Positions 2,391 to 35,203 of a stretch of DNA of 64,000 nt are shown one piece after another. This stretch comes from Escherichia coli. Its GTDB lineage: Bacteria > Pseudomonadota > Gammaproteobacteria > Enterobacterales > Enterobacteriaceae. Every line of letters starts with the position of its first letter. The stretch's first letter is position 1. Position numbers and translations under genes: made by a program. The notes beneath the pieces were generated by a model that worked only from the letters and a program-made list of their open reading frames with translations, made no database searches and was not told where the DNA came from. The stretch is from the NCBI RefSeq assembly GCF_003790525.1, contig NZ_CP033635.1, one strand, 5' to 3'.

Positions 2391-2398
2391 CATTGCAA

Positions 2399-3019
2399 TT
2401 ACTGACGCTGGAGCGACTTCAGCGTCAGATACCCACTCCACACCCGCGTAAAGGTCGTCATCCAGCACAACGCACCAAATACCCACGCAAACCACGGAAA
2501 ACAGGCCGGAAAGAGGCAACTCAGAACAAACAGCAAAATCGTCTCGCTGCCTTCGGTTAACCCGCCCAGATAATAAAACGATTTATGCGCATAACCAGGA
2601 TTATCAATCTGATGTTTCGCCGCCAGCGCAGCAAAAGCGAGAAAACTGCTGCCCGTGCCGATAAACGCAAACAGCAGCCAGCCGCCTGCCAGCGCATTTT
2701 GCTCCGGTGCAGCAAGAATAAAACCAAACGGCACCAGCGCGTAAAAGAGAAAATCGAGAGAAATATCGAGAAAGCCGCCCGCGTCGGTAAGCCCTCTGCG
2801 CCGCGCCAGCGCACCGTCCAGACCATCAAGCAGCCTGTTCAACAAAATGGCGACTAGCGCCGCCAGATACCAGCCCAGCGCCAGAAAAGGCAGTGCCAGC
2901 ACGCCGATGGCAAATCCCACTAATGTTAAACCATCTGGCGTAATGCCCGGTTTATCAAGAACCCGCACGCACTGATGCAACAACGGTTTAATCCGGGGAT
3001 GAAGATGGCGGTCTAGCAC
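2399..3019 (-). CDS. ynjF: CDP-alcohol phosphatidyltransferase family inner membrane protein
   Basis: Hydrophobic ORF; second in-frame GTG has AAGGAG 5 nt upstream, giving 206 aa; ORF track starts 2 codons earlier. Confidence 0.8.
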   Translation of the reverse strand: MLDRHLHPRIKPLLHQCVRVLDKPGITPDGLTLVGFAIGVLALPFLALGWYLAALVAILLNRLLDGLDGALARRRGLTDAGGFLDISLDFLFYALVPFGFILAAPEQNALAGGWLLFAFIGTGSSFLAFAALAAKHQIDNPGYAHKSFYYLGGLTEGSETILLFVLSCLFPACFPWFAWVFGALCWMTTFTRVWSGYLTLKSLQRQ

Positions 3020-3105
3020 AGGCACTCCTTAAATATAAAGCCTTTCTGATTGAGCAACAGTGCGGATATTATGGCATTTTTCGCTTATCTGCCCGTGTGT
3101 AATTT

Positions 3106-3513
3106 ATGAAAATGATTGAAGTTGTTGCCGCCATCATCGAACGTGATGGCAAAATTTTACTCGCGCAACGCCCCGCCCATAGCGATCAGGCGGGATTATG
3201 GGAGTTTGCCGGTGGTAAAGTCGAGCCGGATGAAAGCCAGCGGCAGGCGCTGGTGCGTGAGTTACGCGAAGAACTGGGCATCGAAGCAGCTGTGGGTGAA
3301 TATGTTGCCAGCCATCAGCGAGAAGTTTCGGGGCGGATTATCCATCTTCATGCCTGGCACGTACCCGACTTCCACGGGACGTTACAGGCACATGAACATC
3401 AGGCGCTGGTCTGGTGCTCACCTGAAGAGGCGCTGCAATATCCGCTGGCCCCTGCTGACATTCCACTATTAGAGGCGTTTATGGCTTTACGCGCCGCCAG
3501 ACCAGCGGATTAG
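3106..3513 (+). CDS. nudG: Nudix hydrolase (CTP/dCTP pyrophosphohydrolase)
   Basis: 135 aa; Nudix box GGKVEPDESQRQALVRELREELGIE. Confidence 0.9.
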   Translation: MKMIEVVAAIIERDGKILLAQRPAHSDQAGLWEFAGGKVEPDESQRQALVRELREELGIEAAVGEYVASHQREVSGRIIHLHAWHVPDFHGTLQAHEHQALVWCSPEEALQYPLAPADIPLLEAFMALRAARPAD

Positions 3514-3751
3514 TGCTAAGGGTTTTGTCATCACGCTGGCATTGCAGCAGTATTCCTTCGGCTTTAATTACCGCCCCTTCAGAATAATTTTGATCCTGAT
3601 AAACGCAGCACTGAGTACAGGGCTGCGCTGACTGCCCGCCTGAACTGAACACTTCTGGCGGTACGTTTACCTCCACGTCCGGATGATAATGCGGGTTAGC
3701 CAGTGCAATTAATGGAAATGCTAATACTACGGCGAACAATGCTCGACTCAC
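3479..3751 (-). CDS. ynjH: DUF1496 secreted protein
   Basis: 90 aa ORF with N-terminal signal peptide; 3' end overlaps nudG 3' end by 35 bp on the opposite strand. Confidence 0.8.
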   Translation of the reverse strand: MSRALFAVVLAFPLIALANPHYHPDVEVNVPPEVFSSGGQSAQPCTQCCVYQDQNYSEGAVIKAEGILLQCQRDDKTLSTNPLVWRRVKP

Positions 3752-3986
3752 AGGGAACTCCTTAACGTTATTGTCTCTGCTACTGATAACGGTAGCCGGG
3801 TGGCAAAACTTTAGCGTCTGAGTTATCGCATTTGGTTATGAGATTACTCTCGTTATTAATTTGCTTTCCTGGGTCATTTTTTTCTTGCTTACCGTCACAT
3901 TCTTGATGGTATAGTCGAAAACTGCAAAAGCACATGACATAAACAACATAAGCACAATCGTATTAATATATAAGGGTTTTATATCT

Positions 3987-5330
3987 ATGGATCAGACATA
4001 TTCTCTGGAGTCATTCCTCAACCATGTCCAAAAGCGCGACCCGAATCAAACCGAGTTCGCGCAAGCCGTTCGTGAAGTAATGACCACACTCTGGCCTTTT
4101 CTTGAACAAAATCCAAAATATCGCCAGATGTCATTACTGGAGCGTCTGGTTGAACCGGAGCGCGTGATCCAGTTTCGCGTGGTATGGGTTGATGATCGCA
4201 ACCAGGTACAGGTCAACCGTGCATGGCGTGTGCAGTTCAGTTCTGCCATCGGCCCGTACAAAGGCGGTATGCGCTTCCATCCGTCAGTTAACCTTTCCAT
4301 TCTCAAATTCCTCGGCTTCGAACAAACCTTCAAAAATGCCCTGACTACTCTGCCGATGGGCGGTGGTAAAGGCGGCAGCGATTTCGATCCGAAAGGAAAA
4401 AGCGAAGGTGAAGTGATGCGTTTTTGCCAGGCGCTGATGACTGAACTGTATCGCCACCTGGGCGCGGATACCGACGTTCCGGCAGGTGATATCGGGGTTG
4501 GTGGTCGTGAAGTCGGCTTTATGGCGGGGATGATGAAAAAGCTCTCCAACAATACCGCCTGCGTCTTCACCGGTAAGGGCCTTTCATTTGGCGGCAGTCT
4601 TATTCGCCCGGAAGCTACCGGATACGGTCTGGTTTATTTCACAGAAGCAATGCTAAAACGCCACGGTATGGGTTTTGAAGGAATGCGCGTTTCCGTTTCT
4701 GGCTCCGGCAACGTCGCCCAGTACGCTATCGAAAAAGCGATGGAATTTGGTGCTCGTGTGATCACTGCGTCAGACTCCAGTGGCACTGTAGTTGATGAAA
4801 GCGGATTCACGAAAGAGAAACTGGCACGTCTTATCGAAATCAAAGCCAGCCGCGATGGTCGAGTGGCAGATTACGCCAAAGAATTTGGTCTGGTCTATCT
4901 CGAAGGCCAACAACCGTGGTCTGTACCGGTTGATATCGCCCTGCCTTGCGCCACCCAGAACGAACTGGATGTTGACGCCGCGCATCAGCTTATCGCCAAT
5001 GGCGTTAAAGCCGTCGCCGAAGGGGCAAATATGCCGACCACCATCGAAGCGACTGAACTGTTCCAACAGGCAGGCGTACTGTTTGCACCGGGTAAAGCGG
5101 CTAATGCTGGCGGTGTAGCAACATCGGGCCTGGAAATGGCGCAAAACGCTGCGCGCCTGGGCTGGAAAGCCGAGAAAGTTGACGCACGTTTGCATCACAT
5201 CATGCTGGATATCCACCATGCCTGTGTTGAGCATGGTGGTGAAGGTGAGCAAACCAACTACGTGCAGGGCGCGAACATTGCCGGTTTTGTGAAGGTTGCG
5301 GATGCGATGTTAAGCCAGGGCGTGATTTAA
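3987..5330 (+). CDS. gdhA: NADP-specific glutamate dehydrogenase
   Basis: 447 aa; GGGKGGSDFDPKGKS nucleotide/active-site motif; strong codon bias. Confidence 0.95.
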   Translation: MDQTYSLESFLNHVQKRDPNQTEFAQAVREVMTTLWPFLEQNPKYRQMSLLERLVEPERVIQFRVVWVDDRNQVQVNRAWRVQFSSAIGPYKGGMRFHPSVNLSILKFLGFEQTFKNALTTLPMGGGKGGSDFDPKGKSEGEVMRFCQALMTELYRHLGADTDVPAGDIGVGGREVGFMAGMMKKLSNNTACVFTGKGLSFGGSLIRPEATGYGLVYFTEAMLKRHGMGFEGMRVSVSGSGNVAQYAIEKAMEFGARVITASDSSGTVVDESGFTKEKLARLIEIKASRDGRVADYAKEFGLVYLEGQQPWSVPVDIALPCATQNELDVDAAHQLIANGVKAVAEGANMPTTIEATELFQQAGVLFAPGKAANAGGVATSGLEMAQNAARLGWKAEKVDARLHHIMLDIHHACVEHGGEGEQTNYVQGANIAGFVKVADAMLSQGVI

Positions 5331-34756: not shown

Positions 34757-35203
34757 ATGTTTGATGTCACTTTGCTGATCCTGCTCGGGTTAGCTGCGCT
34801 GGGCTTTATCAGTCATAACACCACTGTCGCCGTTTCAATTCTGGTGTTGATCATTGTCCGCGTCACACCGTTAAGCACCTTTTTCCCGTGGATTGAAAAA
34901 CAGGGGCTAAGTATCGGGATAATCATTCTGACGATTGGCGTTATGGCTCCCATCGCCAGCGGGACGCTACCGCCCTCAACCCTGATTCACTCATTTCTGA
35001 ACTGGAAATCGCTGGTGGCAATTGCAGTCGGCGTTATTGTCTCCTGGCTGGGGGGGCGCGGCGTGACGTTAATGGGCAGCCAGCCGCAACTGGTCGCCGG
35101 GCTGCTGGTGGGCACTGTTTTAGGCGTGGCGCTGTTTCGCGGCGTACCGGTTGGCCCGCTTATTGCCGCGGGTCTGGTTTCGCTGATTGTGGGGAAACAG
35201 TAG
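34757..35203 (+). CDS. yeaL: UPF0756 inner membrane protein
   Basis: 148 aa, four predicted helices. Confidence 0.85.

Follow-up and report, generated by a model that had tools for sequence, protein, structure and literature searches.

The convergent and mutually unrelated genes nudG and ynjH of Escherichia coli share the last 35 bp of their coding sequences. This overlap is genuine and long conserved, and it is probably a passive product of spacer loss that has since been locked in, with the constraint on ynjH dominating and no dedicated device behind it. The overlap itself is already known, being present in the reference annotation and having been published as an example of overlapping genes.

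The nudG-ynjH pair in Escherichia coli

All positions refer to the window, the whole stretch of 64,000 nucleotides that was analysed, which matched E. coli SMS-3-5 at 100%. The coding features at the junction are as follows.

3106..3513, + strand: nudG coding sequence, 135 aa, TAG stop at 3511-3513 (ORF listing)
3479..3751, - strand: ynjH coding sequence, 90 aa, GTG start at 3751, TAA stop at 3481-3479 (ORF listing)
3479..3513, both strands: stretch shared by nudG and ynjH, 35 bp including both stop codons
3511..3513, + strand: nudG stop codon TAG, a T-N-G triplet whose N pairs with the wobble base of ynjH Thr80 (ACT)
K-12 MG1655 equivalents: nudG = b1759, 1841490..1841897; ynjH = b1760, 1841863..1842135

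Read from the sequence, the 3′ end of nudG is TTT ATG GCT TTA CGC GCC GCC AGA CCA GCG GAT TAG and that of ynjH is ACT AAT CCG CTG GTC TGG CGG CGC GTA AAG CCA TAA, the ynjH stop appearing as TTA on the + strand at 3479-3481. On the nudG side the 35 bp comprise 2 nt of F125, codons M126-D135 and the stop; on the ynjH side they comprise the stop, codons P90-N81 and 2 nt of T80. In each gene, then, ten complete sense codons and the stop lie in the overlap, together with two bases of the sense codon before them. The first-pass annotation, made from the sequence alone, had placed a 35-bp overlap of the two 3′ ends at 3479-3513, and both the ORF listing and RefSeq bear out these coordinates. Its description of the shared part as the last 11 codons of each gene is right provided that the stop codon is counted. 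It had also named an earlier alternative stop in either gene as evidence that would speak against the overlap; there is none, each ORF ending at its first in-frame stop.

Both products are recognisable proteins. NudG is annotated by RefSeq as a Nudix hydrolase, a CTP / 5-hydroxy-CTP pyrophosphohydrolase. It matches the Pfam NUDIX domain (PF00293, E 6.7e-23) over residues 4-125, and the Nudix box GX5EX7REUXEEXGU can be read from its translation (G37-KVEPD-E-SQRQALV-RELREELGI). The structure of the K-12 protein covers all 135 residues (PDB 2RRK). YnjH matches Pfam DUF1496 (E 2.3e-24) over residues 33-89 of 90 and, as judged by eye from its sequence, has a signal-peptide-like N-terminus; no solved structure was detectable for it by sequence. 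RefSeq annotates the identical 35-bp overlap in E. coli SMS-3-5 and K-12 MG1655, between which NudG differs at two residues (98.5% identity) and YnjH at one. Moreover, 5417 of the 5426 complete E. coli genomes carry the locus at full length. The pair is a genuine convergent (3′-3′) overlapping protein-coding pair, kept in related genomes and no accident of a single strain.

Two publications have featured the pair. GWIPS-viz (2018) uses the 'overlapping genes nudG and ynjH' as an example, with strand-specific Ribo-seq tracks (Fig. 1A-B). ExcludonFinder (NAR 2025, PMC12288877) lists nudG-ynjH in its Table 1 among 165 convergent excludons of MG1655, calls drawn from RNA-seq coverage in 50% or more of 58 MG1655 samples. 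According to the same study, validation of double-stranded RNA with p19 is not feasible for convergent pairs, and gene order is kept more often in excludon pairs than in other neighbours.

Close convergent junctions recur in this part of the chromosome. Two of the 12 annotated convergent pairs in the 64-kb window overlap (35 bp in nudG/ynjH, 44 bp in nimR/yeaL), a further four lie 0-21 bp apart, and six of the 12 appear on the published MG1655 excludome list. Since about 62% of random 10-codon stretches contain no stop ((61/64)^10, our own calculation), the length of the nudG-ynjH overlap is unremarkable. The second coding overlap, nimR/yeaL, lies at window ~35160..35203 (NC_010498.1 1385512..1385555) and is also on the excludome list.

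Conservation and constraint at the junction

One genome per species was compared, giving 80 loci with a NudG relative. The convergent pair was found in 77 of these, the other three having no ynjH match. In 61 Enterobacteriaceae species loci, including Escherichia, Citrobacter, Salmonella, Kosakonia, Kluyvera, Enterobacter, Buttiauxella and Mangrovibacter, the ynjH stop falls at the same nudG codon (125/126). The overlaps in these loci measure 23-44 bp, depending solely on where nudG stops. The geometry is free of insertions and deletions in 60 of the 61, with a 3-nt shift in the remaining locus (L034). In Serratia, Yersinia and Erwinia the two genes either stand 4-100 bp apart or share 8-12 bp, and a DNA alignment shows the Enterobacteriaceae to be 24-38 nt shorter at the junction than Yersinia and Serratia. 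We infer that an ancestral loss of spacer in the Enterobacteriaceae removed the original stop of nudG; the direction of the event, a deletion in this family as opposed to an insertion elsewhere, is that given by parsimony over a few outgroup families.

Several individual loci deserve mention. A Pluralibacter MAG without ynjH (L050:3001..4641) carries a convergent ORF of 404 aa 27 bp downstream of nudG, and its NudG ends in an unrelated tail (..AFIRQQHQV). In the 'Citrobacter sp.' MAG HRGM_Genome_0066, nudG occurs on two contigs (L003, L014), one resembling E. coli (99% identity) and the other Citrobacter (80%), and a record titled Chryseobacterium sp. 18061 (L040) holds a typical Enterobacteriaceae nudG-ynjH locus. 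These last two cases bear signs of assembly contamination or mislabelling.

The coordinates fix the phase of the two frames: first codon positions are paired with each other, the second position of a nudG codon lies opposite the third of a ynjH codon, and the third opposite the second, so that a wobble position never faces a wobble position. In the aligned Enterobacteriaceae loci, entropy is highest at the third position of nudG codons in the stretch upstream of the overlap (1.66 bits vs 0.36-0.52). From the ynjH stop onward the peak lies at ynjH codon position 3 (1.03 vs 0.48-0.55 bits), where it also lies in the region that belongs to ynjH only (1.46). Within the overlap, pairwise amino-acid identity averages 0.88 in YnjH and 0.58 in NudG, against 0.75 in the flanks of each. 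The C-terminal motif (S/G)TNPL(V/I)W.R of YnjH is kept throughout, both in lineages that have the overlap and in those that lack it, and reads TNPLVWRRVKP in the DUF1496 protein of E. coli. NudG is conserved as far as ...LAPADIPLLEAF(M/I) (..IPLLEAF[MI]), and the tail beyond differs between lineages. These comparisons show that selection inside the 35 bp acts on YnjH; NudG takes what the complement encodes. In the AlphaFold2 model of NudG (pLDDT 93), the C-terminal helix spans residues 116-130 and residues 133-135 score <50. The overlap is accordingly modelled as encoding the end of the NudG helix and a floppy tail.

The clearest trace of this dependence is at the nudG stop. The variable T-N-G site was read as nudG codon 136 and has an entropy of 1.92 bits at position 3512. 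Across the 61 species, an ACT codon for Thr80 of ynjH yields a nudG stop (20 species), ACG yields Ser (23), ACC yields Trp (10) or Gly (1) and ACA yields Leu (7). Because codon 136 follows the wobble base of ynjH Thr80, it is a synonymous site in the neighbouring gene that decides between a NudG of 135 aa and one of 137 aa.

These observations suggest the following course of events. Some 24-38 bp between the convergent genes would have been lost in the ancestor of the Enterobacteriaceae, placing the ynjH stop at nudG codon 125/126 and deleting the old stop of nudG. From then on nudG would have read the complement of the last ten codons of ynjH until a stop happened to appear, and the last turns of the C-terminal helix of NudG, with its disordered tail of 3-5 residues, would be whatever that complement encodes. 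An insertion or deletion in the overlap would shift the frame of both proteins, and the geometry may therefore have been frozen without any function of its own. Interference between the two transcripts would, on the same account, be a minor and conditional side effect.

Transcription across the junction and alternative readings

The following features bear on transcription.

3076, + strand: start of nudG transcription, 30 nt before the ATG (K-12 1841460, SMRT-Cappable-seq Suppl. Data 2)
3514..3986, + strand: stretch crossed by nudG read-through, antisense ynjH and then the ynjH-gdhA spacer
3779..3812, - strand: ynjH sigma-28 (FliA) promoter (RegulonDB ynjHp in Fitzgerald 2014 Table S3)
3987..5330, + strand: gdhA coding sequence, reached by nudG read-through

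The K-12 start of nudG carries over to position 3076, the K-12 sequence showing no difference from the window over 3020-3110. In the SMRT-Cappable-seq data (PMC6131387 Suppl. Data 2) this start gives rise to two units, 'b1759' and the novel 'b1759|b1761', the latter running from nudG across the whole of antisense ynjH into gdhA. The same data list no termination site between nudG and gdhA. The consensus scan of 2900..4100 found no terminator-like sites, and a relaxed scan for a hairpin plus U-tract found nothing within ~100 nt of either the nudG or the ynjH stop. On the - strand the strongest hairpin candidate, at 3204..3160, is some 275 nt inside nudG and has no U-tract next to it. With a read-through unit on record and no terminator found, the overlap at the RNA level can be much longer than 35 bp. 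On the other strand, ynjH transcription must enter the 3′ end of nudG, because the ynjH stop lies inside that gene. Neither nudG nor ynjH is mentioned in the Term-seq supplements of Adams 2021, and no family was matched in an Rfam scan of 2500..4500 at E<=1. Folding was no better than that of shuffled sequence on either strand (z -0.67 and +0.29). Termination of both transcripts is probably Rho-dependent or diffuse.

Some features of the surrounding transcription are worth recording. Transcription of gdhA may partly originate upstream of its own promoter (start ~3922), via the nudG start site. The ynjF start (K-12 1841445, reverse; window 3061) is 15 bp from the nudG start at 3076, giving a back-to-back pair of divergent promoters within an 86-bp spacer. 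Moreover, ynjE and ynjF converge with an 8-bp gap (2391..2398) and are also on the published excludome list, so that three tight junctions (ynjE/ynjF, ynjF/nudG and nudG/ynjH) follow one another.

As given by RegulonDB, the ynjH promoter has its -35 element (TAAAGTTT) at 3812..3805, a -10-like element (ACCGTTAT) at ~3792..3785 and its start site at 3779, all on the - strand. Compared with the pattern TAAAGTTT-(11-12 nt)-GCCGATAA, it matches at 8/8 positions of the -35 and 5/8 of the -10, with a spacer of 12 nt; the motif given in Table 2 of Fitzgerald 2014 is on the opposite strand. In RNA-seq, ynjH reached 29 normalised units in the wild type and 2 in delta-fliA, and a FliA ChIP-seq site was reported (PMC4183435). 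With FliA on, fliC stood at 2319 units against these 29, and deletion of ynjH caused no motility defect (PMC4183435). Sigma-28 control of ynjH is conserved in Salmonella (STM1300), and the sigma-28 motif upstream of the gene is kept in Escherichia, Citrobacter, Salmonella, Kosakonia and Kluyvera. The loci of Buttiauxella, Serratia, Yersinia and Erwinia had no sigma-28-like promoter upstream of ynjH; its regulation in these genera therefore probably differs from that in E. coli.

Two further observations concern this promoter region. The FliA motif for ynjH in Fitzgerald 2014 Table 2 (TAACGTTATTGTCTCTGCTACTGATAAC) is found on the + strand at 3763..3790, pointing toward gdhA. Two sigma-28-like -10 elements thus overlap on opposite strands around GATAAC/GTTATC (window 3763..3812), and the opposite-strand motif could be either a strand error of the motif caller or a bidirectional FliA site. 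In the Buttiauxella, Serratia, Yersinia and Erwinia loci (L035, L051, L053-L061, L063-L082), ynjH is directly preceded by what appears to be the Lys/Arg-rich end of an ORF on the same strand.

The first-pass annotation had held that the two transcripts must be mutually antisense at their 3′ ends and that this can cause transcriptional interference or RNase III processing. The structural part stands: the coding regions share 35 bp, and the mRNAs are therefore antisense there whenever both are made. Interference or RNase III processing at these ends is possible. As ynjH is dependent on sigma-28 and weakly expressed, any antisense effect on nudG would be conditional and probably small.

A stronger form of this idea would make the pair a working convergent excludon gated by sigma-28. 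When FliA is on, transcription of ynjH would lower nudG by collision of polymerases and/or cleavage of the duplex by RNase III; in non-motile cells, read-through from nudG would silence leaky ynjH and add to gdhA transcription. The pair's place on the published MG1655 excludome, the observed read-through from nudG across antisense ynjH into gdhA and the failure to find an insulating terminator between the genes all favour it, as do the 77/80 species loci that keep the arrangement, the FliA dependence of ynjH in Salmonella and the sigma-28 motif kept in several genera. However, ynjH is weak even with FliA on (29 units, against 2319 for fliC), and nudG is absent from the main text of Fitzgerald 2014 and from a portion of its supplementary material. 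Conservation is explained equally well by the double-frameshift lock, and in Serratia, Yersinia and Erwinia the pair persists with coding sequences that overlap barely or not at all. Nor is there a known functional link between a sanitiser of pyrimidine nucleotides and a secreted DUF1496 protein. We therefore regard such an excludon as unlikely. Less likely still is its fullest form, in which the frozen overlap would lie at the heart of an antisense switch gated by sigma-28: in motile cells FliA-driven ynjH transcription would lower the level of this enzyme that clears oxidised pyrimidine nucleotides, in non-motile cells nudG read-through would keep ynjH silent and provide a second, nudG-coupled route to gdhA, and the arrangement would have been conserved across the Enterobacteriaceae for the sake of that coupling and not only through the double-frameshift lock. 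If true, sigma-28-gated coupling would connect the flagellar regulon with both the sanitation of the nucleotide pool and the transcription of gdhA; no observation to date points that way.

Two other readings fare worse. A hidden bidirectional intrinsic terminator, shared by both genes and stopping each transcript inside the 3′ end of the other, would be in keeping with how common such terminators are between convergent E. coli genes (general knowledge; one example is in PMC6131387) and with the overlapping terminators that TransTermHP predicted for 146 of the 165 convergent excludons (ExcludonFinder, PMC12288877). Both terminator scans were negative here, though, the fold z-scores were unexceptional, and SMRT-Cappable-seq lists no termination site at this place. 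No GC-rich hairpin with an A- and a U-tract was found at the stops, and the proposal is largely refuted, leaving it very improbable. That one of the ORFs is unreal, or ends earlier than annotated, is the least credible reading. We found no support for it, ynjH being merely small and of unknown function, and it is opposed by the strong Pfam matches reaching the C-terminal regions of both proteins, by the conservation of both genes with codon-position periodicity across 60-80 species, by the full-length NudG structure and the FliA-dependent ynjH mRNA, and by the strand-specific Ribo-seq tracks for the pair (GWIPS-viz Fig. 1). An artefact or an earlier stop is rejected, apart from exotic recoding, as both ORFs end at the first in-frame stop.

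The preferred reading, a by-product of spacer loss, has its own difficulties. The frozen geometry and the persistence of the convergent pair across the Enterobacterales would also fit selection for regulatory coupling, and the tendency of excludon pairs to keep their gene order (ExcludonFinder, PMC12288877) counts against a mere by-product.

Relation to known overlapping pairs

The pair is of use chiefly as a teaching case: in a tail-to-tail overlap where wobble never faces wobble, the more constrained partner, here the YnjH C-terminus, dictates the sequence. Its value as a discovery is small, since the reference annotation, a published showcase and a published transcript list already cover the overlap. 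The K-12 pair (RefSeq; GWIPS-viz 2018) is the same locus, with the same genes and the same 35-bp overlap as in the window, and nothing material differs. The nimR/yeaL pair resembles it in being an annotated convergent coding overlap on the excludome list, although the genes are different.

The pair is like convergent excludons, as conceived in Listeria and catalogued in the MG1655 excludome, in that opposite-strand neighbours have transcripts overlapping at their 3′ ends, and it shares with excludons a partner controlled by a condition-specific sigma factor. Unlike those excludons that overlap only in 3′ untranslated regions, the coding sequences of nudG and ynjH themselves overlap. The regulatory meaning of the excludon concept is opposing expression and RNase III dependence; the likeness of nudG-ynjH to it is one of transcript geometry and sigma-factor control.

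Comparative genomics of bacteria describes tail-to-tail overlapping pairs that arise when a gene loses its stop codon and lengthens at its 3′ end into its neighbour. The nudG-ynjH pair is similar in that a poorly constrained nudG tail runs through the complement of the conserved end of ynjH, and in that the length of the overlap (23-44 bp) varies only with where a stop arises. However, it differs from many such pairs in being older and more stable, fixed as it is across 61 Enterobacteriaceae species, and in that part of the overlap (NudG 125-130) encodes a structured helix.
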